Of a DNA stretch of 64,000 nucleotides, positions 344-64,000 are shown piece by piece. Under the pieces are notes generated by a model. It did not search any database and was not told the origin of the DNA. It saw only the letters and a program-made list of their open reading frames with translations. Where the stretch lies: assembly GCA_019358935.1 (NCBI GenBank), contig JAHHIK010000007.1, forward strand, positions 1-64,000, written 5' to 3'. The position numbers and the translations under genes were made by a program. This stretch comes from Tolypothrix carrinoi HA7290-LM1. Lineage in GTDB: Bacteria; Cyanobacteriota; Cyanobacteriia; Cyanobacteriales; Nostocaceae. Each line of letters begins with the position of its first letter. Within the stretch, counting starts at the first letter, position 1.

Positions 344-1792
344 ATGAAAGTCTACTCAGGGTTAACAGTTATCGGGGTAACAATTGCTTTATCAAGTGCG
401 ATGTATTTAAGCCAGTCTAATCGTCCACATGACTTAGTAGCAATTAAATTCTGCCCGAAAACTGCCAACTTACCACCTCGCTACGGTGAAGAATTTAGTC
501 AACGTTCCCAAGAAAGTTTAGATAAAAAGTATTGCGACTACGAGCATAAATTGCTCAAAGAGATATGGTCACAAAAGCAATTTGAATCGTCTACACCATT
601 ACCAGAATCATCATTCAGCATTCGTCATATCCCTGCTAGTAATAAGAATGCGATTTGGTTTTTAGTTGCTCCCATAGCTTCTGGAATCGCTTATTTAAGT
701 TGGACTAAAAAGGCAGAAATAGACGAACTCTCAGCACATTCTGAATTAGAAGCGTATAAAAGTTGTATTAAATTAACCACAGTCTCTAATCAAAATGAGA
801 GAGAATTTAAGACGCTTCAAACTAATCAAACATGGGATAAACAAAAAGTTAAGCATGGTTTTATATCCATTGAAGCGATGCAAGATAAGTTAAAGCGCTC
901 CTCTCTTATACAGGATAAAACCCACGCTTCTACTCTCAAACAGTTTGATTTAGCCGACTCCGATATGGATAAAAAGATTGCTGAAAACTTGCGAGATAAG
1001 CACAAGGCTTTATCAGATACCCAAAAGATACTAGGTAAAAAGTCCAGCAATGATTCAGAAACATTAAGTAACCCAGAATCTCATATCCAAGAAAGGGTAA
1101 ATCAACTCATAGAAGCCTTAAAACAATGGGAGGATGGTTGGCTGTATACAATTATCAAAAATAACAAACCTTTATGGTTAATTGGTTCCCAAGGAAGCGG
1201 TAAAACCAACACAGCGGGGTGTATTGCAATCATCCGTAAATATTGCTTTAATGCTCCAATTTACCAGCTTATCGACCGTCACGCTACGGGTGAAAATTGG
1301 CAGGTGTGGCAATTATTAAATGCACAAATCAAAGCAGAATCAGAGTCAGAAATAGGACAGGCTTTAGAGGATGCTTGTGAGCGTTGGTTAGCGAGGATTA
1401 AAGAAGTACCAAAACAAAAGCAACAACTAGTTATTGATGAATTTACCAATCTCAAAAAAATACCATCTTGCAAAGAAGCGGCTATGAAGTTTTTCTCCAT
1501 GCACTTGACAGATACCAGAAAAGCAAAAGAATATTTTATTGGCATCAATCATTATTTTACCAATGAAAGTACTGTGGAAGGCACATTTGAAGCACGTAAG
1601 GCTGGCACGATTCAAATTAAAAAGTTTTCTGCAAATGGGGAAACACCATTACCAAGAGTACAAATTGTACATGGTTTGGTGGATAGCAATGGGAATGAAT
1701 TAGAAGAAGTTGAGGTGACGCTACCTAGTTGGTTTGAGGCAGGACAAATTTACAACCATTTTAACGGTAGCAAGATCGACTTTTCAGGATAA
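344..1792 (+). CDS. Membrane-anchored P-loop ATPase, FtsK/HerA/VirB4-like, copy 1
   Basis: Two N-terminal hydrophobic segments, coiled-coil middle, Walker A GSQGSGKT, Walker B LVIDE, downstream TRK...FIGINH motif. Confidence 0.75.
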   Translation: MKVYSGLTVIGVTIALSSAMYLSQSNRPHDLVAIKFCPKTANLPPRYGEEFSQRSQESLDKKYCDYEHKLLKEIWSQKQFESSTPLPESSFSIRHIPASNKNAIWFLVAPIASGIAYLSWTKKAEIDELSAHSELEAYKSCIKLTTVSNQNEREFKTLQTNQTWDKQKVKHGFISIEAMQDKLKRSSLIQDKTHASTLKQFDLADSDMDKKIAENLRDKHKALSDTQKILGKKSSNDSETLSNPESHIQERVNQLIEALKQWEDGWLYTIIKNNKPLWLIGSQGSGKTNTAGCIAIIRKYCFNAPIYQLIDRHATGENWQVWQLLNAQIKAESESEIGQALEDACERWLARIKEVPKQKQQLVIDEFTNLKKIPSCKEAAMKFFSMHLTDTRKAKEYFIGINHYFTNESTVEGTFEARKAGTIQIKKFSANGETPLPRVQIVHGLVDSNGNELEEVEVTLPSWFEAGQIYNHFNGSKIDFSG

Positions 1793-6132: not shown

Positions 6133-6588
6133 TTACTTCGACGAGTTACTCAGCATCGTTATTAACCGTTTGAGTTGACCAACTCGCTTGCGCTGATCGT
6201 ACCTATGTTTGGCTTCAGTGGTAATTTTCTCACGTAACGTATTATCTTCACTAGCCACTGTCCAAGCTGCTTCTAGGAAGGTTTCAACTGTAATTCCCCG
6301 TATGCGGCAAAATTGTGTCAGTTTTTGGTCAAGGTCTTTTTCCAAAACTATCGCCGAGTGGCGCTTGGTTTCTGGGTATTGTTCGAGTTCTGCCGTTAGT
6401 GCAGCAATAGTATCAGCACCATTAGTTGTAGTTGGACTTTCTACTGACTCTACTGGCAACGGTAGTGTTGCTGCTTCTTCAAGTTCTTTTTCTGACTGAG
6501 ATCCTTGCTGAACGAGCGCATCAATTCTTGGTTCAACAGTGGCACGGTTGCGTTTGTTGCGAATTTGATTGAGTACGTTATCATCCAT
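6133..6588 (-). CDS. ParA partner (small centromere-binding/adaptor protein candidate)
   Basis: Overlaps parA stop; basic N-terminus, acidic linker, RHH-like C-terminal part. Confidence 0.6.
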   Translation of the reverse strand: MDDNVLNQIRNKRNRATVEPRIDALVQQGSQSEKELEEAATLPLPVESVESPTTTNGADTIAALTAELEQYPETKRHSAIVLEKDLDQKLTQFCRIRGITVETFLEAAWTVASEDNTLREKITTEAKHRYDQRKRVGQLKRLITMLSNSSK

Positions 6589-7372
6589 TGTTTATTCCCA
6601 ACCCAATGTGTGTGCTAATTTTCTCGATTAAGATTTCAAACGGATATTCCAGGTCGGTGTATCCCAACTCGCTTAAGGTGGTGCGACGGTTGATTGCTTG
6701 TTTGAAACGTTCCGATTCAAGTATGGAAGGTAGAACTAGTTGTTCGCCAACTTCAGAGCGCATAGAGTCAACAGATGCTCGACTTTCTTGAGCTTGGGTG
6801 TTTCCAAACCAGCGATCGCGAAATGGCAGGACACCTAATAATTCGGCATCAGTTGCACCGACATCGCGCAGTCCCGCCAGTAAATCGAGGGTTCTGATTA
6901 AGGAACCATAACCTTTTACTGATGCTTCTGCGGGAATGACCAAAAAATCTGCCGCCCCCAGGACGGTTAAACAAATTTGCGAACGCTGGGGTGGAGCATC
7001 GATAATGCACACTTTGAATATTTTGGCAACTGCTTCTAACCGACGTTTGAGTAAGGTTGCACCCACCCCGCTATTGGAGAGGTAATCCTGTACGGTGTCG
7101 AGTTGGTCGTCGGCGGGGATGAGAAATAAATTGTCGTTATATGCGGTGGGGTATATGCTATCTTCGGCGGGAACCGTTTTTTTGAGAAATTCCAGTAGAG
7201 TTGGTTGGTTGGGTTCCAACTCGAACCCCAAATAAGTAGTGAGGTTGTGCTGCGGGTCAGAATCAATCATTAATGTGGGACAGGAGCGATTTGCGAGCAG
7301 CCGACCTAGAAATAAGGCTGTTGTCGTCTTCCCCTGTCCCCCACTGAGACTGGCGATGCTAATTGTCAGCAT
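6581..7372 (-). CDS. parA: ParA family partition ATPase
   Basis: SGGQGKTT deviant Walker A, IDSDPQ, IIDAPP. Confidence 0.92.
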   Translation of the reverse strand: MLTISIASLSGGQGKTTTALFLGRLLANRSCPTLMIDSDPQHNLTTYLGFELEPNQPTLLEFLKKTVPAEDSIYPTAYNDNLFLIPADDQLDTVQDYLSNSGVGATLLKRRLEAVAKIFKVCIIDAPPQRSQICLTVLGAADFLVIPAEASVKGYGSLIRTLDLLAGLRDVGATDAELLGVLPFRDRWFGNTQAQESRASVDSMRSEVGEQLVLPSILESERFKQAINRRTTLSELGYTDLEYPFEILIEKISTHIGLGINNG

Positions 7373-34572: not shown

Positions 34573-37500
34573 CTAATCTTTCCCTCTTTTGTTAAGAAAG
34601 GCTAACCTTTCCCTCTCCGATTGAGAAAGCAATGCCCAAGCCACTTGCCTCTCCTGAAGTTCATAAAGTTCAAGAAAATCCACAACCAATTCCCACGAGT
34701 CGCACCCACATAGAATTTCAGGCATACTCAATTCAAATTCTACTATTTGTTGCGAGTCGCGGTTTAGCCGAATTTCCTCCAACTGTTCTTTATCCACAGC
34801 CGGTTCGACTTTTATAAGCTTATTAACCAAATGCGGATTTTCTAACGGGTCTAAATCCGGTACAAAAACTGTCCCCGACTGGCTGGAGATATAGTATTTC
34901 TTATATCTTTGGCTAGTTGGGGACAGTTTTGGGGGTTCAAAAAATCTCTTGTCAATCGCCTCTAACACAAAACGTGTCGTGTCGTCAAGTTGAGGTAAGG
35001 TGGTAGGGTCAAAGTGGTAGAAATACTTTCTTTCCCCCCCTCCAACACGATGGCGATCGCGCACTATGACAACACCAATTTTCGACAAAACTCGTCTTAG
35101 CAAGTAAACCGGATCGCTATCAGCATCAGCATTAATCGCCAACACAGCACGCAGTTTGTAAGAATTTTTTACACAAACCCGTTTAAAATCAACAATTAAT
35201 TCCTCATCAGCAGTCCAATGCCCAAGTTTTCTACTCAACTTATCAACCAAAGAAGGCACACCCAAATCACACAGCACGCTTGCTTGCATTGCACGGGAGC
35301 GCATATCCCAAATCTCATCACCGTAGTTAAGGGATTTTAGCCAGCGCTCAACATCAAACATTTTTTGTTTGTCCAGATTGGACATAGCCCAGCGTAATTC
35401 CAGCTGACTGATATAATCTGGGTCTTTAAAGTGTTTTTCGTATATAAAATCAGCATCAAAATCAAAACCTGGTAATCTATGTTTTAAAATTGCTTTTGTA
35501 GCTTTGTGTCTATCCTCTGGTGTTAGCATCATCGATTCCCAAAGCTTTAGAGCTTGCTGATAACTTATATCTTCCGCTTCATAGATAGATGAAGATTCCT
35601 CTTTTAGCCATTCGTCGCGAGCTTCATTAATCTTCTTAAAAGACTCGTAAACTTGCATAGGCATTTCTGAAGCGTTATGTCCTATATTCTGTAAATCTCG
35701 AATCAGCGATTCTCGCAAATTAGCACGACTGTGATTATCAAGTGCTGTATAGCTACAAACAGCTTTAAAATGTGGTGATTGCCACTTATTAGAAGTAAAA
35801 TTCATCAATTGTTCCAGATTGTCAATAATACTAGTAGCCTCGTTTTTGTCAGGTAAATAATTGCAGATTCCCAACAAATCTATAGCTTGTTGGTGGTTGT
35901 TAAAATAATTGCGAGCCACAACTTCTGGAAGCGGAGAGCGAGAAGCGTGATTATCCAAGAGAGAATAAGTTTTGCAGAAGACAATTCGCTCTACAGGCTG
36001 TCTGTACCGTGCCAACATCTGCATAATTTGACGGTGGTTTATCACCCCAAAAAATGTACCGTACACCCGCTCAAAATAAGGAAGAGTAATATCTAAGCTA
36101 CTTTCAGCAGTAGGAGATATCAATACTACTTGCGGTTTATTTTCTGCTAAATACTCGTTGGGTTTTTGCAGGAAACTGTTAACAGCATGGCTTGTCTCTG
36201 GGTCAGCTTTTGTCATGCTATCAACTCGTAAAACATCAAGATTAAAAGACTCTAAAACGCTTTGTAAACCAACTAAGTTGCGTTGTGCGTCACTGACAAT
36301 TAGCAATTTATTGCCAAGAGCAGCATCATAAACAAGTCCTTTCTCAAAGCCCCCACGAGCATTTTTCATTTCACGGACTTTACCACTTTTAAATACTTTC
36401 TTTTCGCCACCATATACGCTTACCTTCCATGCTGGAACTTGTCCTTTGTTCCAAATTCCAAATATGTTTTTCCCAGAAATTTCTTGTAAATATTTAGAAG
36501 AAATTGCAGTTAGGTCAGCGTCGAAACAGAAGATATAATCAGCTTCACGTATCAGGCGAACAAAACTTTCAATAATAATCTTGCGACGCTTGCGGCAGGT
36601 GCTTCCTGCTAGCATCTGCTGCAAGAGTTTATCGACTTCTTCGAGGATTAAGACTTTTCGGGATGATAATAAAAAGCAAGAATCAACACAAGCAGCAATC
36701 CAAGAACAAACCGAGCGCAACTTTTTATTTAAACGCTTGTCGTCAGTGGAAATATCATGGAGGTGAATGACTTTATCTTGAGATTTTTCACAAAATTGTT
36801 GTAGTAAAGAATTACGGTAAGATAATACGGTTCCTTGACTAAAATGTTCGACAATTTTGAGGGCAAGTGTAGATTTACCAGTTGCCATTCCCGATTTCAA
36901 AAGATAAACACCTTTGGCGAGATTATTGAGGTTTAAGTTAAGGAATCTCTCTGATTTTATCGAATCTGCCCACGGGGAGAAATCTTCTAAATATTGTTGC
37001 GCTGCTTGAACTCGTTCTTTATAATCACCAAAGTTAAGTTGTTTAGAGTCAAACCAATTATCCTCTGACTGGAGTCCACCATGCTCACGGGCATACGCTA
37101 GGAATTGCTGCCAACTGATATAATCAATTTCGGTAAAGAGCGGCAGTTCGTCGATATCCTGGTGCTGTTCCTTATCAATTTGTCCCCACCAACCAACACG
37201 GACGAATAACCCCAGGCTGTGGAAGAATTCGTATTGACGAATCCAGCGACGCATTACTTGGGGGTTTTTCACGTCCCCGGCATCTGGGCAGATGTTGATT
37301 GTGTGGATAATTTTGGTAGTGATTAGTTCTTGAAATTGCTCTCCAGATCCGCTAAAATTGCCACCGGCTGCCCCAACAAACAGTTTGTTAAAATGTATAG
37401 CAGCAATTAATGGTTTGGGCAATCCTTCAGCTACAAAAGCCTCCCCACCAAATTCCTCTCCTGTCCAGGAGCAATCGGAGCTAAAAATAGCAAAGCCAGG

Positions 37501-38175
37501 GATAATGGTAATGGGCAGCTCGCCATTTTGTAGATGTGAGGATTTATAGCCCTTGGGCCATCTGTACTTACCTCCATCTGGAGAGCCATCTAATCGATAC
37601 TGCCCGCCAGCAATTAATCCTTCGAGGGTGAAGGCAGGCATAAAGATTGCACTATCAGCAACCGCAAGGGAGCCACTACGCACGCCAGGATAATTCGAGG
37701 GAAACAAAGCTGGTAGTTTTTCGCGAGGACTTACGCTGAAAAATCCCGATAAATTAATTTGCTCATCACTTAAACCCCTTGCTCTAAGGGAATCTCTGTG
37801 ACGGCTGGATAAGCCGAAGTATTTGTGAAGCTGCCGAGCGTATTTATCAATTTCCTGTATGGAGAGCTTGCTCTTAGCCTCAGCTGCCTTCTCCTCTCGA
37901 CGGCGGCGCTCTTTCTCCTCACGCCACTCCGGATGCTGTGAAGAGTAATGGCTGCCATCAGAACGTTCCGCAACCAAAATTCCCCAAAATGCGCCACCGT
38001 TGACATCCTTAAGATAGCGCCAGCCCGGTATCGATTGATGGGTGTGCAGACACAGCACCATTGAAAAGTCGCTTTTTACTTGGCAATCGTGTTTTTGCCC
38101 ACTACAAGCAGGGCAAGAGAAAGTGCGACTCGTGCGGATAAAATCTTTTTTGTTGTAATTTGGTGATGCTACCAT
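34573..38175 (-). CDS. Plasmid replication protein, CyRepA-type primase-helicase
   Basis: N-terminal CPAC...C Zn motif, KYRW, AEG..KP and PDAG TOPRIM-like motifs, SGMATGKS Walker A, LILEE, DADL, QMLARYR. Confidence 0.8.
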   Translation of the reverse strand: MVASPNYNKKDFIRTSRTFSCPACSGQKHDCQVKSDFSMVLCLHTHQSIPGWRYLKDVNGGAFWGILVAERSDGSHYSSQHPEWREEKERRRREEKAAEAKSKLSIQEIDKYARQLHKYFGLSSRHRDSLRARGLSDEQINLSGFFSVSPREKLPALFPSNYPGVRSGSLAVADSAIFMPAFTLEGLIAGGQYRLDGSPDGGKYRWPKGYKSSHLQNGELPITIIPGFAIFSSDCSWTGEEFGGEAFVAEGLPKPLIAAIHFNKLFVGAAGGNFSGSGEQFQELITTKIIHTINICPDAGDVKNPQVMRRWIRQYEFFHSLGLFVRVGWWGQIDKEQHQDIDELPLFTEIDYISWQQFLAYAREHGGLQSEDNWFDSKQLNFGDYKERVQAAQQYLEDFSPWADSIKSERFLNLNLNNLAKGVYLLKSGMATGKSTLALKIVEHFSQGTVLSYRNSLLQQFCEKSQDKVIHLHDISTDDKRLNKKLRSVCSWIAACVDSCFLLSSRKVLILEEVDKLLQQMLAGSTCRKRRKIIIESFVRLIREADYIFCFDADLTAISSKYLQEISGKNIFGIWNKGQVPAWKVSVYGGEKKVFKSGKVREMKNARGGFEKGLVYDAALGNKLLIVSDAQRNLVGLQSVLESFNLDVLRVDSMTKADPETSHAVNSFLQKPNEYLAENKPQVVLISPTAESSLDITLPYFERVYGTFFGVINHRQIMQMLARYRQPVERIVFCKTYSLLDNHASRSPLPEVVARNYFNNHQQAIDLLGICNYLPDKNEATSIIDNLEQLMNFTSNKWQSPHFKAVCSYTALDNHSRANLRESLIRDLQNIGHNASEMPMQVYESFKKINEARDEWLKEESSSIYEAEDISYQQALKLWESMMLTPEDRHKATKAILKHRLPGFDFDADFIYEKHFKDPDYISQLELRWAMSNLDKQKMFDVERWLKSLNYGDEIWDMRSRAMQASVLCDLGVPSLVDKLSRKLGHWTADEELIVDFKRVCVKNSYKLRAVLAINADADSDPVYLLRRVLSKIGVVIVRDRHRVGGGERKYFYHFDPTTLPQLDDTTRFVLEAIDKRFFEPPKLSPTSQRYKKYYISSQSGTVFVPDLDPLENPHLVNKLIKVEPAVDKEQLEEIRLNRDSQQIVEFELSMPEILCGCDSWELVVDFLELYELQERQVAWALLSQSERERLAFLNKRGKD

Positions 38176-41614: not shown

Positions 41615-41765
41615 CCCAAACACCTTTTACCTACTACCAATTGTACTGTTGTTTTTACCGCTATTAATTCAATTGTTGTGGAGTTCCCGACCTTTGACCC
41701 CCAGCCAGCAACGACAAAGGTTAGTCGAACAGGGTTTCATCTGTAAAGGACATTGCAAGGATTAA
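41553..41765 (+). CDS. Small single-pass membrane protein, start uncertain
   Basis: FYLLPIVLLFLPLLIQLLW hydrophobic helix; fills the gap between adjacent genes. Confidence 0.5.
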   Translation: MPNQPSEKNYQKLSQQRSKLNPNTFYLLPIVLLFLPLLIQLLWSSRPLTPSQQRQRLVEQGFICKGHCKD

Positions 41766-41767
41766 TT

Positions 41768-42424
41768 ATGAAAAACAAAGCCAAAGTTCGTGACCACATA
41801 TCAGGCTACGGTAAACAAATAACCAAAGCTACAAATCTTCATTTTGGTATCAACAATGCTTTGATTATCAAAGCCGTAAACGGAGACGAGAAAGCCCTCA
41901 AACAGATTGGCGATATGGGTAAGCTGGGGGAGAGACTAGCTACGTCTATGCCACTTATCCGGGAGAATCTTAAAGCTTATATCGAAGGCACAACCGAATA
42001 CAACACAGCCCTAGCAGATATTTATAAAAGTGGTGGTAAAGGTGCCGCTTCAATCGATAAAGCCGCAGGTGATGTAACTTTAGAGAACACCCGTTATAAC
42101 AACCTGATTTCAGAGTACAAAGCTAGTTTATTTGCCAAACTCGAATCTGAGAACCAACGTCACGATGATGCGCTAGATGTCATCGAGTTACAGGCTTGGA
42201 TAGATACTCAAATGGCTACAGTTAACGCCAAAGCTAGCCTTGAATCTATCAGCAATAAGCCATTTTTAGCGCAGATGAAAGCCGACGCGGATTATGAAGA
42301 TAAAAAGATAAAGCACCTGCTAGAGAATGGTAGTGATTCAGATTTATCACTTATCCCCAAAAAGCATTATTCCACCAACCCAGTAGTAAAACTATGGAAT
42401 GAAATCAGAGATATTTTCAGTTAA
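41768..42424 (+). CDS. Helical/coiled-coil hypothetical protein
   Basis: ATG 2 bp after previous stop; A/K/E-rich. Confidence 0.75.
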   Translation: MKNKAKVRDHISGYGKQITKATNLHFGINNALIIKAVNGDEKALKQIGDMGKLGERLATSMPLIRENLKAYIEGTTEYNTALADIYKSGGKGAASIDKAAGDVTLENTRYNNLISEYKASLFAKLESENQRHDDALDVIELQAWIDTQMATVNAKASLESISNKPFLAQMKADADYEDKKIKHLLENGSDSDLSLIPKKHYSTNPVVKLWNEIRDIFS

Positions 42425-42506
42425 TTAAAACACCTCCAGGCATAATTGTAACTGGAGGATATTTTCAGTTAATTAAAAAACCTCCAGACACAATTGTAAC
42501 TGGAGG
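42410..42506. repeat. 48-bp tandem duplication, each unit with a CCTCCAG...CTGGAGG hairpin
   Basis: Units start at 42410 and 42458 with GATATTTTCAGTTAATTAAAA. Confidence 0.85.
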
Positions 42507-42535
42507 TACAAATAAACAATTCATTGGTTATTTCT

Positions 42536-43114
42536 ATGATGCCCGAATTTGAATTAGGAGAGGATACCAGCCAAGAATCAAATTATCCAATCCAAGAAGA
42601 TACTGCATTTACCCCCGATGAAATCGAAGCTATTAAAGCCTACAAAGATAATCTCACCCGAAAACTAAGCAAAAATCGAAGTATTTTAAAGGGATTAGAA
42701 ACAAGCTTTTGGGGAATTACTTCCTACAGTTTAGCTAGATTTTTGATTCTTACCAGTGGTACTCAAGGAATAGCATTAGCAATAGCATCAATCCTCCTAA
42801 TCAATCAAATAACCAATAGAGAAGTATTTGATGAGATAAATATTAATCGCAAAGATGGACAATGGTCAGCTGACAATATGGGTAAACTTATCAAATTTGG
42901 ATTCTCAACCTTAGTCACTGCATTTGTAATGTGGAGTGCCTTGGGTAGTTTTTTGAACATTGTTAACTCATCAAAACAAACCTACAACCAATTGCAGGAT
43001 ACCGTTACAGCTTTTAATAAGCTACCCGAAGACAAGCAAAATGGATTTATTATTGTAGGTGGTTTACTCGTCTTAGCTGGTATCTACACGATTATTGACT
43101 CAAAAAGAAGATAA
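42536..43114 (+). CDS. Multi-pass membrane protein
   Basis: Three to four hydrophobic segments; abuts the ATPase gene. Confidence 0.78.
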   Translation: MMPEFELGEDTSQESNYPIQEDTAFTPDEIEAIKAYKDNLTRKLSKNRSILKGLETSFWGITSYSLARFLILTSGTQGIALAIASILLINQITNREVFDEININRKDGQWSADNMGKLIKFGFSTLVTAFVMWSALGSFLNIVNSSKQTYNQLQDTVTAFNKLPEDKQNGFIIVGGLLVLAGIYTIIDSKRR

Positions 43115-44564
43115 GATGAAAGTCTACTCAGGGTTAACAGTTATCGGGGTAACAATTGCTTTATCAAGTGCGATGTATTTAAGCCAGTCTAATCGTCCAC
43201 ATGACTTAGTAGCAATTAAATTCTGCCCGAAAACTGCCAACTTACCACCTCGCTACGGTGAAGAATTTAGTCAACGTTCCCAAGAAAGTTTAGATAAAAA
43301 GTATTGCGACTACGAGCATAAATTGCTCAAAGAGATATGGTCACAAAAGCAATTTGAATCGTCTACACCATTACCAGAATCATCATTCAGCATTCGTCAT
43401 ATCCCTGCTAGTAATAAGAATGCGATTTGGTTTTTAGTTGCTCCCATAGCTTCTGGAATCGCTTATTTAAGTTGGACTAAAAAGGCAGAAATAGACGAAC
43501 TCTCAGCACATTCTGAATTAGAAGCGTATAAAAGTTGTATTAAATTAACCACAGTCTCTAATCAAAATGAGAGAGAATTTAAGACGCTTCAAACTAATCA
43601 AACATGGGATAAACAAAAAGTTAAGCATGGTTTTATATCCATTGAAGCAATGCAAGATAAGTTAAAGCGCTCCTCTCTTATACAGGATAAAACCCACGCT
43701 TCTACGATAAAACAGTTTGACTTAGCTGATTCCGATATGGATAAAAAGATTGCTGAAAACTTGCGGGATAAACACAAAGCTGAAGCAGATACCCAAAAGA
43801 TATTAGGGAAAAAATCTGATAGTGATTCAGAAATATCAAGTAACCCAAATTCCTATATCCAAGAAAGGGTAAATCAACTATTAGAAGCCTTAAAACAATG
43901 GGAGGATGGTTGGTTATACACAATTATCAAAAATAACAAACCTTTGTGGTTAATTGGTTCCCAAGGCAGCGGTAAAACCAACACAGCAGGGTGTATTGCA
44001 ATCATCCGTAAATATTGCTTTGATGCTCCAATATACCAGCTTATCGACCGTCACGCTACTGGTGAGAATTGGCAAGTGTGGCAATTATTAGATACACAAA
44101 TTAAAGCAGAATCTGAATCCGAAATCGGACAGGCTTTAGAGGATGCTTGTGAGCGTTGGTTAATGAGAATTAAAGAAGTACCGAAACAAAAGCAACAGCT
44201 AGTTATTGATGAATTTACCAATCTCAAAAAAATCCCATCTTGTAAAGAGTCAGCTATGAAGTTTTTCTCCATGCACCTGACTGATACCAGAAAAGCGAAA
44301 GAGTTTTTTATTGGCATCAATCATTATTTTACCAATGAAAGCACAGTGGAAGGCACATTTGAAGCACGTAAGGCTGGCACGATTCAAATCAAAAAGTTTT
44401 CTGCAAATGGCGAAACACCATTATCAAGAGTACAAATTGTACATGGTTTGGTGGATAGCAATGGTAACGAATTAGAAGAAGTTGAACAAACACTCCCTAG
44501 TTGGTTTGAGGCAGTACAAATTTACAACCATTTCAACGGTAAACCAATCGATTTTGAGGGATAA
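42773..44564 (+). repeat. Long direct repeat, copy 2
   Basis: Matches 1-1792. Confidence 0.95.
43116..44564 (+). CDS. Membrane-anchored P-loop ATPase, FtsK/HerA/VirB4-like, copy 2
   Basis: Same motifs as 344-1792; frame intact in both diverged copies. Confidence 0.75.
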   Translation: MKVYSGLTVIGVTIALSSAMYLSQSNRPHDLVAIKFCPKTANLPPRYGEEFSQRSQESLDKKYCDYEHKLLKEIWSQKQFESSTPLPESSFSIRHIPASNKNAIWFLVAPIASGIAYLSWTKKAEIDELSAHSELEAYKSCIKLTTVSNQNEREFKTLQTNQTWDKQKVKHGFISIEAMQDKLKRSSLIQDKTHASTIKQFDLADSDMDKKIAENLRDKHKAEADTQKILGKKSDSDSEISSNPNSYIQERVNQLLEALKQWEDGWLYTIIKNNKPLWLIGSQGSGKTNTAGCIAIIRKYCFDAPIYQLIDRHATGENWQVWQLLDTQIKAESESEIGQALEDACERWLMRIKEVPKQKQQLVIDEFTNLKKIPSCKESAMKFFSMHLTDTRKAKEFFIGINHYFTNESTVEGTFEARKAGTIQIKKFSANGETPLSRVQIVHGLVDSNGNELEEVEQTLPSWFEAVQIYNHFNGKPIDFEG

Positions 44565-58943: not shown

Positions 58944-59008
58944 GACGGATTTATTCTTGAAGGGTTACTTTTATTCTTACTGTGGTGAGCATCCATAGGA
59001 GTTGATTT

Positions 59009-59054
59009 ATGCTTCCGGTAGTGAAGTCATAATACGATTCAGTACCGGAAGCAT
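59009..59054. promoter_or_regulatory. Hairpin about 65 bp upstream of the PKS start
   Basis: ATGCTTCCGGTA...TACCGGAAGCAT followed by a T-run on the + strand. Confidence 0.5.
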
Positions 59055-59775
59055 TTTTTCATACTTCTGATGATAATACAACATCTATTGAGCTAAATGA
59101 TGACGTAATCTCGTATTAGTAGAGATTTTGTGTAAAAAAAGTTTGTGCCAATAGAGATAATCATATCCACCGCTTGGGTGGCGATTAACTCCTCTCGAAT
59201 CTCCTTTTCCCCATGTCCCGCATCCGATGCAGAACTCGCCATCACAAACCCGGCTCTACCTCGCTCATTTAAATAACTGTAAAAATACTGTACTGGAGTT
59301 TAGACTAACGCTCTTTTATTACTAAACTTAAAGTATAATTAATTACTAACAGCTTAACCTACCAGGAGTGTTTGATTGGGTTCAAGAACAGCTACCTCCA
59401 CCATCACCGTGGTGAAATTAAAGACGATCATGTTAAATTGTGGCAGATGGGAGGATTAGATGAACTACTAGAGCGGGGTTGTCAACAGGTGCGAGGTTAT
59501 CTAGTTAATCTTGATGAGAATCACAGCGATCGCCATCTTTGTGATAGCATCAGCAATTCTCAGAGATGATATTGTATTACTCACGTTCGCGTCACTACCT
59601 TTGACTAAAAGCCATTATCGGCATTTAGAAAAGTCTTCAAGCACAAATTTAGCTAATGGTACGGTGACCTTATGTTCTTAAGAAAAAAATAATAAATTTA
59701 ATCCTGGCAATCAAAAAAAGCACTGTAGCATAAGCAACAAAGGAGCTAATCATGTTACCTTCACTGCGCGGTATT

Positions 59776-59849
59776 GGCAATCTCTTCAATCATCCTCAGA
59801 GCAAATTATCTCAATCGTTGCTTGCTTTCGGCTCTCTTTGCTACTCGAC
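59776..59849. repeat. 74-bp direct repeat, copy B
   Basis: Matches 46110-46183. Confidence 0.8.
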
Positions 59850-60070
59850 ATTTGTCAAGTACGCATTCGTGGATGGCGTATAGATATGGGAGTGCAGTAG
59901 TTGGCTGCTGCGGTGCTTAGTGCGACTCTAATTCTTCCATTTGTTGCTTTTTCGCTTCGTTTCTGCTCTCAGACTAACTATTCCCCCAGAACAGCCTCCA
60001 ATTGGGCGATCGCTTAAGAGTGAATCGGTGCAACCTGTTCTTGAATGGGCGCTAACTGTGCAGCTATCTT

Positions 60071-60178
60071 GACAATAACGTTATTGGCAGAGTCTGGTTC
60101 CTCTGACTCAGTTTTGACAATAACGTTATTGGCAGAGTCTGGTTTCACCGTTTCACCTTTGACCATTACGTTATTAGC
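60071..60178. repeat. Three non-coding copies of the parB-internal palindrome (candidate parS)
   Basis: GACAATAACGTTATTGGC at 60071 and 60116, GACCATTACGTTATTAGC at 60161; 45-bp period. Confidence 0.85.
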
Positions 60179-60658
60179 TACTTTGGCATCAACGAGCGAG
60201 AAGGCGTTTTAATGTAGCTCAAGATTTGGAGTGCCTGTGCCGGCAAATTTTACTCTAACTGTTTAAGTTTCTCATCAATTCTTCGCACACTTGACGCGAG
60301 TCGGCACACCCTATCACTAGACGCATCAGTTATAGACTACAAAGCGCCTGTTCTTACCAAAGACAATTGCTCGTGACCCGACATCTTCACATACAGCTAG
60401 CAGCTTTACACTTGAGAAGAAATAATAATACTTCCTACGGAATTTTCCGCGCATTACTATCAGCAAGACGCGTGGAGTGCAAGCGATCGCTCGCAGTGCT
60501 CAAATTGGTAATAAGCGGTACTAAAGAAGCGATCGCGCTTCTTGACTCTGCGGTCAATCGTAAGAACGTCATCAAGTCTTTTTATGAGACAAACACAATT
60601 TAACAGCACTAATTGAGTTATCTTACCTCTATATGGGGCAGAGCCAATCAACTCACTT

Positions 60659-61414
60659 ATGAGCCGAATTATTGCAATATTTAATCAAGCGGGTGGTGTC
60701 GCCAAGTCAACTCTTACCCAAAACTTGGGCTATCATTTAGCACAACTCAAGCATCGTGTCCTCCTCATCGACATGGACCCTCAAGGCTCCTTAACAATCT
60801 TTATGGGTTTGGTTCCTAGAGTTTTAAGCAAAACTGTCTATGATGCCATAGTCGAAGAACAACCCCTGTCGATTCATCAGGGAATTCACGGCATGGACTT
60901 AGCCCCCACCAACACCACCCTTAGTACAGCGGAAATGCTATTGGTCAATGCCGAACTGCGCGACTTCCGTCTCAAAGAAGCTATTGAGCCAATCCAGGAC
61001 GATTACGACTTCATCTTAATAGACTGCCCTCCCAGTCTAGGACTGCTAAGTTACATTTCTCTTGTAGCTGCTACTCATGTCCTTGTCCCCATCGAAACTC
61101 ATTTCAAAGCTTTTGAAGGAACAAACGAACTCCTGAAAACCGTCGCCAGGATTCGCACCAAAGTCAACCGTCATCTTGAGATAGCTGGGTTTGTTCCCAC
61201 CAAATACGATTCCCGTAATTCCCAGGACACTCGCACCTTGGGAGCAATTACTGAACAACTCTCTCAGATGGGAAAAGTCTTTCCCCCCATTCCTCGTTCC
61301 ACTACCTTCGTTGATGCAACAGAAGACCGAATGCCCCTAGCCGTGTATGAGCCAAAGCATCCAGCTGTTGCTGTCCTTAAACAGTTAGCTAGCAGCATGG
61401 AGTCCTTAAAATGA
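60659..61414 (+). CDS. parA: ParA/Soj family ATPase
   Basis: NQAGGVAKST, IDMDPQGSL, LIDCPPSLG. Confidence 0.95.
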   Translation: MSRIIAIFNQAGGVAKSTLTQNLGYHLAQLKHRVLLIDMDPQGSLTIFMGLVPRVLSKTVYDAIVEEQPLSIHQGIHGMDLAPTNTTLSTAEMLLVNAELRDFRLKEAIEPIQDDYDFILIDCPPSLGLLSYISLVAATHVLVPIETHFKAFEGTNELLKTVARIRTKVNRHLEIAGFVPTKYDSRNSQDTRTLGAITEQLSQMGKVFPPIPRSTTFVDATEDRMPLAVYEPKHPAVAVLKQLASSMESLK

Positions 61415-62757
61415 TCCGCAAACGCAACCAACCTCTCAAAAGTCAAATTGAAGTGCCTTGGGACCCCAGAAGCGATTTATCTCCCAACGCTGCCGCCGAG
61501 TCCACCCAGAACGTGCCATTAGAGCAGATACGTCTCCCCCAACAGCAACCCCGGCGTTACTTTGACCCTCAAGCTCTAAACGAGTTAATCGACTCAGTCA
61601 AACAGCATGGCATCCTGCAACCCTTATTAGTGCGCCCCATTGATGAGGGTCAATACGAATTAGTGGCAGGGGAACGACGCTACCGCGCCGCAAAAGATTG
61701 TGGACTTGAAAAAGTTCCCGTCGTTGTCCGCGAGTTGAGTAACGAAGATGCTTTCCAACTCGCACTAATAGAAAACTTGCTTCGAGAAGACCTCAACCCA
61801 GTGGAGTCAACTGAAGGCATCCTACAACTGTTGGCAGTCAGGTTAAAGCGCAATGTTGAGTCAGTTCCAACCTTACTGCATCGCCTACAACGCGAATACA
61901 AAGAAGCCGCCAAAGTTGCCAATAACGTTATTGGCAACTTTGGCGCATCGGATCTAGACACTGCCAATAACGTTATTGGCAAAAGTGAAGCGGATGATGA
62001 ACCGGAATCTGCCAATAACGTTATTGGCAAAACTTCAGTATCGGATCAAGACACTGCCAATAACGTTATTGGCAAAACTTCAGTATCGGATCAAGACACT
62101 GCCAATAACGTTATTGGCAAAAGTGAAGCGGAGGAATCAGGCGCTGCCAATAACGTTACTGTCAAAAATGAATCTGATGAGGGGGAATCTGCCAATAATG
62201 TTATTGGCAAAAGTGAAGCAGATCCAGACGCTGCCAATAACGTTATTGTCAAAAATTCAGCATCGGCTCAAGACTCTGCCAATAACGTTATTGGCAAAAC
62301 TGAGTCGGATGGTTCATCACCATCCCCCAACCCGAATTTAAGTGCCAATCCAGACCTGAAGATTATTGAAGAAGTATTTATCGGCTTGGGGACAATGACC
62401 TGGGAGTCCTTTGTCAATAATCGTCTGCCCCTACTAAACCTCCCAGAAGACATCCTCAATGTGCTGCGCTCTGGACAAATTGCCTACACCAAAGCCAAAG
62501 TTATTGCCCAAATCAAAGAGGACTCAACACGGCAAACCGTTTTAGAAAAAGCCGTTGCCAATAGCTGGTCACTATCACAAATTAAAGAACACATCCAAAC
62601 CCTATCACCCACTACGCCACCACCAACGCCTCTCAAGTCTCGTCTGGATGCCACAATCCGTCAGGTGAAGAAAGCCCGGATTTGGGATGACCCCAACAAG
62701 CAAACTCGTCTATCAACACTTCTAGCAGAACTGGAAACCCTCCTGGCTGAGGATTAA
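61411..62757 (+). CDS. parB: ParB/Spo0J CTPase-type partition protein with internal ANNVIG repeats
   Basis: QPRRYF, GILQPLLVR, LVAGERRYRAA, IENLLREDLNP, NNRLPLLNLP. Confidence 0.95.
   Translation: MIRKRNQPLKSQIEVPWDPRSDLSPNAAAESTQNVPLEQIRLPQQQPRRYFDPQALNELIDSVKQHGILQPLLVRPIDEGQYELVAGERRYRAAKDCGLEKVPVVVRELSNEDAFQLALIENLLREDLNPVESTEGILQLLAVRLKRNVESVPTLLHRLQREYKEAAKVANNVIGNFGASDLDTANNVIGKSEADDEPESANNVIGKTSVSDQDTANNVIGKTSVSDQDTANNVIGKSEAEESGAANNVTVKNESDEGESANNVIGKSEADPDAANNVIVKNSASAQDSANNVIGKTESDGSSPSPNPNLSANPDLKIIEEVFIGLGTMTWESFVNNRLPLLNLPEDILNVLRSGQIAYTKAKVIAQIKEDSTRQTVLEKAVANSWSLSQIKEHIQTLSPTTPPPTPLKSRLDATIRQVKKARIWDDPNKQTRLSTLLAELETLLAED
61908..62295. repeat. Nine copies of 18-bp palindrome GCCAATAACGTTATTGGC in the parB coding sequence
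   Basis: Starts 61918, 61963, 62011, 62056, 62101, 62146, 62191, 62233, 62278; six perfect. Confidence 0.95.
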
Positions 62758-62950
62758 ACGCCACTAAAAACAACACCCATAATCCGTAAAACCTTTGCCC
62801 TGACTGCATTGGAGAGTGTATAACCAACTACGAACCTGGCTGAACTGGAAACCCTTCTCACTCTCGATTAAACGCCACTAAAACCTACGCCTATAATCAG
62901 TAAAACCCTTATCATTACTGCATTATAGAATGTATAACAAACCACAAAAG
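62728..62950 (+). repeat. Degenerate 114-bp tandem duplication of the parB 3' end and downstream DNA
   Basis: GAACTGGAAACCC...GATTAAACGCCACTAAAAAC at 62728 and 62842. Confidence 0.8.
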
Positions 62951-63007
62951 CAAAATTAATAAACTACACTAGCATTTAAATCCTTTGTTGATCGCCCTTT
63001 CCTGACA

Positions 63008-64000
63008 ATGCTAGATAAGCATAAGATTGATCAGCTACTGAACGCCTGGTTGGATTTCTTTTATCTGGAAAACCTTTCCCATGCTGAAGTTGATGCTGCC
63101 GACGATGATAACCAAATCTTGGACAAAGGCATCTCCCTGGTCGGCGACAATCTGCTTATAGAAGAATCTTTATTTAAACAACTCAAGCAACAATTCCTCG
63201 CGCTCAAGAAGAAAGGTAAAAATAATGACTTTCAAATGGCTGTAGCTTTGCCTCAAATTTGGCGGGCAATTGAAGGCAGTCGCCGATTTTATCCCCTGTT
63301 TAAGATTGATATTTCCAGCATCTTTCAAGGCAACTACCGCGCTAAAGGTTGGGATTTGAATTCTTTTGAGTTCCAACCCGTTCCCCCAAACTTGATGGAA
63401 TTGTATCAGCTTGACGAAGAAGAAATCGAAGCCTTAGTCATAAAAGAAGGTCTCAAGGTCTTCTTAGAAACCACCTTTAAGCAATCTTTCACCAGCCTGC
63501 AAGACTTTCTTGACCTTGTTGACTTGCCAGTCAAACCTTACACAACCAAACGCGCTCCCTATCTGCTGCACTTTGACTTCGTTGCTTACAATTACAATCT
63601 CAAAAAAGACTTACAGAAAATATTAGAGCAGCCGCAGTGGGAGTGGGCAGAACCAGGTCATCCCGCTTATGAGTATCTGTTTGGGCAACCCCAACCACCA
63701 CACCATGAAGTGCTGTTTCTGGGTGCTTTTCCGACTCATCCCCCCACGGACTCTCAAGCAGTGGCTCTCAAACACACCCAAGAGAACCCCATCACTGCCG
63801 TTATTGGTCCTCCAGGAAATGGCAAGACTACCTTGCTGTTGCACAAACTAGCCCAGCAAGTGGTCAAACGGGCTGTGCAGTTGGCGCAAACGGGACAAGA
63901 TGAAAGTAATTTGACCCTAGTTACCAGTACGAACAACCGGGCTGTCTCCAATGTTGAGCAACGATTAGCTCAAGACTTCCCAACCAACCGATTTTATTTA
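63008..64000 (+). CDS. Superfamily 1 (Upf1/DNA2-like) helicase domain protein, runs off the window
   Basis: My translation MLDKHKIDQLLNAWLDF...; SQAVAL Q-motif, GPPGNGKT Walker A, VTSTNNRAVSNV motif Ia. Confidence 0.82.
   Translation, partial: MLDKHKIDQLLNAWLDFFYLENLSHAEVDAADDDNQILDKGISLVGDNLLIEESLFKQLKQQFLALKKKGKNNDFQMAVALPQIWRAIEGSRRFYPLFKIDISSIFQGNYRAKGWDLNSFEFQPVPPNLMELYQLDEEEIEALVIKEGLKVFLETTFKQSFTSLQDFLDLVDLPVKPYTTKRAPYLLHFDFVAYNYNLKKDLQKILEQPQWEWAEPGHPAYEYLFGQPQPPHHEVLFLGAFPTHPPTDSQAVALKHTQENPITAVIGPPGNGKTTLLLHKLAQQVVKRAVQLAQTGQDESNLTLVTSTNNRAVSNVEQRLAQDFPTNRFYL

Follow-up and report, generated by a model that had tools for sequence, protein, structure and literature searches.

What is the role of a palindrome that is written nine times into the codons of a cyanobacterial parB gene, and which molecule, DNA, RNA or protein, is it kept for? 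The gene in question lies near the end of the 64,000-nucleotide stretch of Tolypothrix carrinoi HA7290-LM1 that was analysed here (hereafter the window), where ANNVIG peptide repeats are the translation of an 18-bp palindrome. The window belongs to contig C7 (117,883 bp, 44% GC) of a 184-contig draft assembly. C7 is plasmid-like, because it harbours genes for a CyRepA1-family replication protein and a DUF3854 protein, two Mob_Pre genes and integrase genes. The features discussed below are as follows.

34573..38175, minus strand: gene for a CyRepA1-family plasmid replication protein (NF042913, E 4e-87, above cut-off)
60071..60178, minus strand: three further copies of the site (60071, 60116 and a weak one at 60161) at 45-bp spacing upstream of parA, found by scan; apparently an inverted, non-coding relic
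60659..61414, plus strand: parA, 251 aa, overlapping the start of parB (Pfam AAA_31, E 5e-49), with the Walker A signature lysine replaced by Ala
61411..62757, plus strand: parB, 448 aa (Pfam PF02195, E 1.8e-33; PF17762 and TIGR00180 above cut-off; structure model)
61669..61680, plus strand: GERR CTP-binding motif, identified in the sequence and aligned to solved ParBs
61855..61932, plus strand: subfamily-specific extra helix, aa 149-174 (alignment and model), whose R161 position co-varies with site position 1
61918..62295, no strand: the array, candidate parS, encoding the ANNVIG repeats (motif scan; structure model with residues 175-310 at pLDDT <50)
61918..61935, no strand: copy 1, at the same place as the palindrome of single-site homologues, with a 38-bp extension in this genome only
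61963..61980, no strand: copy 2, perfect (motif scan, as for all following copies)
62011..62028, no strand: copy 3, perfect; its unit 62011-62055 recurs unchanged as 62056-62100
62056..62073, no strand: copy 4, perfect
62101..62118, no strand: copy 5, perfect
62146..62163, no strand: copy 6, two mismatches
62191..62208, no strand: copy 7, one mismatch
62233..62250, no strand: copy 8, one mismatch
62278..62295, no strand: copy 9, perfect
62401..62439, plus strand: recognition helix WESFVNNRLPLLN, aa 331-343 (HMMER alignment with the Spo0J recognition helix; covariation)

C7 probably consists of two related plasmids joined together: Rep-like, Mob and ParA genes are each present twice on it. A gene set is repeated on it (window 344-1792 and 41753-44564; C7:115057-117346); 482-aa ORFs at 344 and 43116 share their first 50 residues, and 218-aa ORFs are found at 41768 and 116050. 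The second ParA-like gene (window 6581-7372) has an SGGQGKT Walker A motif, which we take to be McdA-like, and no ParB CTPase is encoded beside it. Adjoining the par locus, the segment 50457-58943 codes, as judged from its translation, for a 2828-aa type I polyketide synthase-like protein, and transporter-like genes accompany it. Promoter and terminator scans of positions 59000-63100 gave 6 and 5 matches, respectively, vs 6.5 and 4.0 in shuffled sequences.

The first-pass annotation of this DNA had described nine perfect palindromes at 42- to 48-bp spacing in the reading frame of parB. The number, the frame (all nine are in frame 0) and the spacing (45, 48, 45, 45, 45, 45, 42 and 45 bp from start to start) stand, but only six copies are perfect, two others having one mismatch and the last one two. 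At up to three mismatches the site has 11 matches in the whole window, vs a mean of 0.04 and a largest value of 1 in shuffles. Units 3 and 4 are a recent 45-bp duplication. The 38-bp perfect palindrome reported around copy 1 (61908-61945) is indeed present in the assembly. Its extension is private to this copy, since the palindrome at the same place spans only 22 bp in the orthologues L001, L002 and L004; it was thus ruled out as a functional part. Our guess is that it arose by a template-switch mutation. The contigs of run X1 break at 61937, inside the 38-bp palindrome, where a hairpin formed by it would split them.

To place the array, we collected 277 distinct HMM hits, of which 125 passed a helix filter and form the subfamily set of cyanobacterial/Thermus-type ParBs. 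The other 152 comprise 138 distant ParBs or weak hits and 14 high-scoring homologues examined apart. A scan of viral contigs placed one of 80 loci (L134) in the subfamily. Among the 125 subfamily genes, the best 18-mer of the loop is a perfect palindrome in 93, has 8/9 pairs in 19 and seven or fewer in 13. These 18-mers are centred in frame 0 in 123 genes and have an AACGTT core in 111, and the perfect ones represent 35 distinct sequences. Control windows of equal length from the same loci yielded a perfect palindrome in 1/250 cases. None of 115 distant ParB genes has a perfect loop 18-mer (11 have 8/9 pairs), and the 14 homologues outside the filter are divided into seven with 8-9 pairs and seven with fewer. 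In this loop, all three other ParB paralogues of the T. carrinoi genome and 17/17 related loci show perfect palindromy over 14 bp or more, centred on AAC|GTT. By this comparison, the nine-copy array has grown from a single site, present at one fixed position in most members of the subfamily.

Expansion is found elsewhere in the subfamily: 26 of the 125 genes have at least two copies (2 to 10, at no more than one mismatch of the 16-mer), with seven state changes on the tree. The proposal that the number of sites changes in frame was borne out by the exact 45-bp duplicate and by the contigs of related strains, in which array lengths differ by -42, -87, +93, -270, +390 and +90 bases, 6/6 being multiples of three; these counts include only joints with a known insert, and the relatives were matched at 88% likeness and are not one population. 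A mixed array was observed in the ParB gene L346 (G401:C6), with four THNVMG sites and two NNVIG units in which the palindrome is broken by an ATA codon. The same genome, G401, also has an ANNVIG-type replicon. In another of its contigs, G401:C13, the opening 20 kb recur exactly, as reverse complement, in the closing 20 kb, and the par locus is present twice (L344 and L345), reflecting either an inverted duplication or an assembly artefact.

The window's ParB is composed of a ParB_N (CTPase) domain, the extra helix, the array loop, an HTH domain and C-terminal helices. The CTPase motif GxxRxxA is present as AGERRYRA, and the GERR and QPR motifs are each found in 120/125 members of the subfamily. 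The nearest named relatives are records of Tolypothrix, Scytonema and Spirirestis, with 78-85% identity. With 151 bits, the window's ParB falls below the curated cut-off (315) of the Noc family TIGR04285. In the structure model, pLDDT is <50 for residues 175-310, between the extra helix (149-174) and the HTH helices (314-326 and 331-343); the array-encoded insert of ~140 aa is thus predicted to be disordered, just before the HTH. The model of a single-site homologue (L009) matches ParB-parS, Spo0J and Noc-NBS structures (Foldseek E 1e-14, Z 15-16), and KorB is among the fold matches.

A parA gene directly precedes parB in 96 loci, 114 of the 125 having enough flanking sequence. The Walker A motif of the window's ParA reads NQAGGVAKS and lacks the signature lysine of the deviant motif (KGGxxK); an A, S or C is found in its stead in 82/96 adjacent ParAs. 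The partner is thus, as judged from its motif, a variant ParA without the signature lysine. In 81 of the 82 lysine-less ParAs a Lys residue is present later in the chain, at a P-x-x-x-x-K position, and might serve as a McdA-type substitute, a replacement for the signature lysine described in PMC6582323. As in type Ia ParABS systems, we found a ParB CTPase domain, a central HTH, an adjacent Walker-type ParA and replicon-specific palindromes near par.

Is the repeat kept for its peptide? If the ANNVIG repeat were conserved as such, its codon symmetry would be incidental, and Asn-Val is indeed conserved at the loop position. Nevertheless, TRNVSG, ADNVIR, EENVFL and other peptides take its place with the symmetry kept, and the loop is predicted to be disordered. 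Given the peptides and the codon usage of the family, the probability of a perfect palindrome has a median of 0.0017 and a maximum of 0.015, and only one of 32 Asn-Val pairs outside the loop in these genes is coded AACGTT. In ten NNVI-type genes, a single codon string accounts for 51/56 units, despite synonymous differences to the window's gene of 0.10 to 0.63. Among 41 array units from five genes, the palindrome positions are ~80-100% invariant, vs mostly 40-80% for the outer linker positions. On the tree, we counted 43 arm changes; they are two-sided, and palindromy is kept. The array is real and is not a peptide repeat; the peptide reading appears largely refuted, and we give it hardly any weight. 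These data agree with the earlier suggestion that selection acts on the DNA. As that annotation had also anticipated, homologues encode other palindromes and other x-x-N-V-x-x peptides, among them AHNVMG; at the fixed loop, the codons are palindromic in 93/125 genes, with 35 types of sequence.

The palindrome might instead work at the RNA level: a hairpin with the loop ACGU could influence how parB is translated or how stable its mRNA is. From its sequence every copy can form a 7-bp stem with a 4-nt loop, and regulation of Caulobacter parB by mRNA structure is described in PMC13371061. We found no support for an RNA stem, because the mismatched pairs are not biased towards G-U (14 are of the G-U type and 23 of the A-C type). 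Furthermore, the bases at the centre form a palindrome of their own and hardly vary, perfect copies occur in non-coding DNA, and the covariation partner is the DNA-recognition helix. The RNA hairpin is therefore highly improbable, and the symmetry points to a DNA site.

If ParB itself reads this DNA, its residues should change with the bases. We counted site-helix combinations (69 distinct ones; 12 of 123 rows with weak sites were left out). F+3 Asn goes with T at site position 6 in 38/38 combinations, Ser, Thr, Ala or Lys with A in 24/26 and His with C in 3/4. F+2 Arg goes with G at position 5 (8/8) and F+1 Arg with G at position 3 (16/19). In the window's recognition helix, the positions of V335, N336 and N337 co-vary with site positions 3, 5 and 6. 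In an unbiased scan of 229 columns, the top rank falls to F+3 for position 6 and, for position 1, to the column of R161 in the extra helix, with Asn accompanying A in 45/47 cases. No clear partner residue was identified for positions 2 and 4. The position-6 rule is also followed, on at least one arm, by 8/8 members outside the first filter, and by Thermus pTT27 (one arm), pVV8, pTB1 and pCC7120epsilon.

These associations were placed on a weakly resolved FastTree phylogeny built without the loop and the helix (2 of 125 incomplete rows left out). Position 6 changes 13 times, and 12 of these changes fall together with a change at F+3, vs a mean of 1.7 and a maximum of 6 in the simulated null (0/1000). 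For the four rules, which were picked after the table was seen and involve site bases that are also codons, the coincident changes number 12, 3, 6 and 5, vs null maxima of 6, 2, 4 and 4 (0/1000 each). Independent pairs on well-supported branches amount to 3, 3, 4 and 2, too few for significance (p 0.125-0.5), with no opposite pair in three of the four rules. Covariation between protein residues, or linkage, could contribute to the signal. According to PMC7383237, the specificity residues of ParB and Noc sit in this recognition helix.

Copies outside the gene were then compared with the local ParB. The three copies upstream of the window's parA, which the first-pass annotation had overlooked, are evidently an inverted relic of the parB array, and thus they do not count as independent evidence; they were rejected as such. 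In loci L001 and L004 the upstream copies are frameshifted, with their palindromes kept. Two intergenic copies beyond the window, at C7:68129 and 68184, recur in G401 and G402. In the 7.96-Mb genome of T. carrinoi, four of 29 site types correspond to its four parB genes and have 15, 3, 2 and 1 matches of the 16-mer (at most one mismatch), whereas 24 of the 25 other types have none and one type has a single one-mismatch match. Twelve of the 15 matches of the window's site type fall in the 8 kb surrounding this parAB. All 24 matches in five THNVMG-type genomes are on the parB contig, as are most of those in five NNVIG-type genomes, with a few elsewhere. Flanking copies are cognate in 21/93 loci vs 4/2343 tests with non-cognate sites. 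Of these four, two are due to another parB present in the locus, a third is a one-mismatch match in L004, and the fourth, on G230:C4, is a real mismatch. At this last locus (L253; 25513-28240), parA and parB are divergent and the site beside parA is of another type than that in parB, possibly owing to a parB replacement. On G306:C4 (L234; 51967-54288), twelve 211-bp tandem units follow parB; each is a parB fragment with a cognate site, which makes up an extragenic array of parB pieces.

Altogether, the 18-bp palindrome is, with a probability of about 0.8, the cognate site (parS) where this ParB binds and loads, as part of a type Ia-like ParABS system of a plasmid. We favour this reading because the site has a fixed position and two-sided palindromy, its outside copies are replicon-specific and the helix changes with it. 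Against it speak the 13/125 members with seven or fewer pairs, half of the 14 homologues outside the filter, the foreign site type on G230:C4, and ParBm of Thermus, the one homologue tested, for which binding to a different palindrome in its gene was reported. The idea that the gene carries its own centromere holds in part: the site is inside parB and would most likely be the ParB's own parS, as indicated by the match between site type and local parB, the cognate flanking copies and the covariation, but 25/125 loci have cognate copies outside the gene as well (none was detected in the available flank of the other 100).

Two other readings accept a DNA site. ParB might bind it chiefly to control how strongly parAB is expressed, as an operator or a roadblock, like KorB, with segregation determined elsewhere or secondary. 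Twelve loci do have a cognate copy ~34-112 bp before parA, and the fold resemblance to KorB fits. However, parA is directly upstream of parB in the 96 loci mentioned above; in several plasmids (G306:C3, G144:C3), the intragenic site is the sole such palindrome on the whole replicon, and dispersed and tandem copies near par resemble centromeres. We consider a mainly regulatory role unlikely. That the site belongs to another factor, such as a host protein, a resolvase or a Rep protein, and sits in parB by history, would agree with the different palindrome published as parSm of Thermus, and with the exact 18-mer that an unrelated gene in prophage-like elements carries in its reading frame. Nevertheless, the site type tracks the helix of the local ParB and not the host, with four types in one genome, and through all the arm changes on the tree position 6 is tracked by one ParB residue. 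This makes another owner very unlikely.

The unrelated gene just mentioned, of unknown kind, codes for 144 aa and follows an integrase-like ORF in prophage-like elements, two of them in G000 (L022, C79:39486-39920; L023, C102:831-1265). Among its close homologues (L022, L023, L315, L316, L333, L334 and L339), 4/7 have the perfect 18-mer and three have one mismatch. At the site, 4/5 codons of invariant residues are unchanged, vs 20/62 outside it. The three genomes with close homologues all have the site array, and two with distant homologues have neither. Conceivably, these elements might use the plasmid's ParB through the 18-mer.

If the palindrome is the cognate parS, the following scenario may apply. 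An ancestor of the subfamily would have acquired, ahead of the HTH, the extra helix together with a loop that tolerates change, and the codons of this loop spell the site, always centred on AAC|GTT (Asn-Val). A ParB dimer would read each half-site with its recognition helices. The putative residue code would pair F+3 Asn with T, Ser, Thr, Ala or Lys with A and His with C at position 6, F+2 Arg with G at position 5 and F+1 Arg with G at position 3, and the extra helix possibly contacts position 1. ParB would then close as a CTP clamp and spread, and ParA would move it. Duplication of the segment with the site, in multiples of three bases, has occurred in some lineages and gives nine sites here, and the disordered insert of ~140 aa is apparently tolerated by the protein. 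The copies just upstream of parA in other members are probably operators.

Site differences had also been proposed to define incompatibility groups. This was not supported: identical sites are found in 3/49 within-genome pairs vs 63/1491 pairs between genomes, a small sample with at most four candidates scored per genome, and identical sites are thus not depleted within genomes. All three identical pairs are from G059, with three replicons that have the same site. Sites are all different in 17/18 genomes with several ParBs, which is no proof of incompatibility because diversity alone would give that.

In the literature, covered mostly without subscription journals and searched with five motifs as literal strings, neither the cyanobacterial sites nor the fixed loop, the residue code or the arrays in frame turned up, and we saw no parS sequence reported for a cyanobacterial plasmid; the accessible parts of PMC12704722 and bioRxiv 2025.06.27.661541 contain nothing bearing on these sites. 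The parS of such plasmids may be predictable from the parB gene alone, including that of Nostoc PCC 7120 plasmid epsilon, which has a TRNVSG site and one outside copy. Plasmid segregation in polyploid filamentous cyanobacteria thus becomes directly testable. Deletion or complementation of parB in this family would remove or move a centromere. The 35 natural protein-site pairs with a candidate code form a set for studying the evolution of DNA specificity, and might also supply orthogonal ParB/parS pairs with which to label loci or build stable shuttle vectors. More tentatively, and with somewhat more doubt than confidence, one may picture a widespread cyanobacterial/Thermus ParB subfamily in which the codons of a disordered loop are the protein's own centromere, a four-position code includes a contact of the extra helix, specificity and site mutate together within ~100 bp, expansion tunes strength, the Thermus parSm is a secondary half-site and prophage-like elements use the resident ParB.

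How does this system compare with known ones? In the F plasmid, sopC is the centromere of SopB and consists of tandem ~43-bp units, each with a 16-bp palindrome. The tandem palindrome units are alike, but sopC is non-coding and located downstream of sopB, whereas here the units are parB codons. A parS site is also established inside spo0J of B. subtilis. Chromosomal ParB/Spo0J-parS and Noc-NBS have the same fold; according to PMC7383237, a few recognition-helix residues change their specificity. The chromosomal parS is nearly universal, unlike the 35 sites found here with their AACGTT core and an insertion of ~30 aa before the HTH. Intragenic parS sites are already known, in Thermus and for ParB1 and ParB2 of Streptomyces SCP1. 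The ParB1/parS1 and ParB2/parS2 systems of SCP1 are likewise plasmid ParB CTPases with a palindromic site inside each parB and a strict specificity; ChIP-seq and BLI are shown there (PMC13245405). They differ in having three sites per system, of 13 and 19 bp, and the accessible text of that paper describes no in-frame array or family-wide code.

The closest system is ParABm-parSm of the Thermus thermophilus HB27 megaplasmid pTT27. ParBm belongs to the same subfamily (45% and 37% identity in two blocks), with the same extra helix, a WESFV..RLPLL helix, a parAB operon and a ParB site inside parB. According to PMC4409726 and PMC10085754, ParABm is required for partition of the megaplasmid. In the former, ParBm bound a different, 14-bp palindrome, picked by inspection, in EMSA, and ParBm-GFP formed foci in E. 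coli from its gene alone; in the latter, the parABm deletion, in which the site was lost too, was not complementable. Unlike the locus described here, pTT27 has one site and no array, and the published 14-bp parSm is located outside the loop: its distance from the ENL motif is 111 codons, vs ~50 for the loop, which puts it ~60 codons further downstream. No palindrome of at least 14 bp was found at this place in pVV8 and pTB1. We observed an unreported loop site in pTT27 (L348:1858-1875; NC_005838.1), 8/9-paired and with an AACGTT core. It is unique on the 232-kb plasmid at no more than two mismatches from its symmetrised form, and it fits the code, with His for C6 and Asn for A1. The half-site GGAC, common to this loop site and parSm, could explain the EMSA result, and the assignment of the Thermus parSm is worth re-testing.
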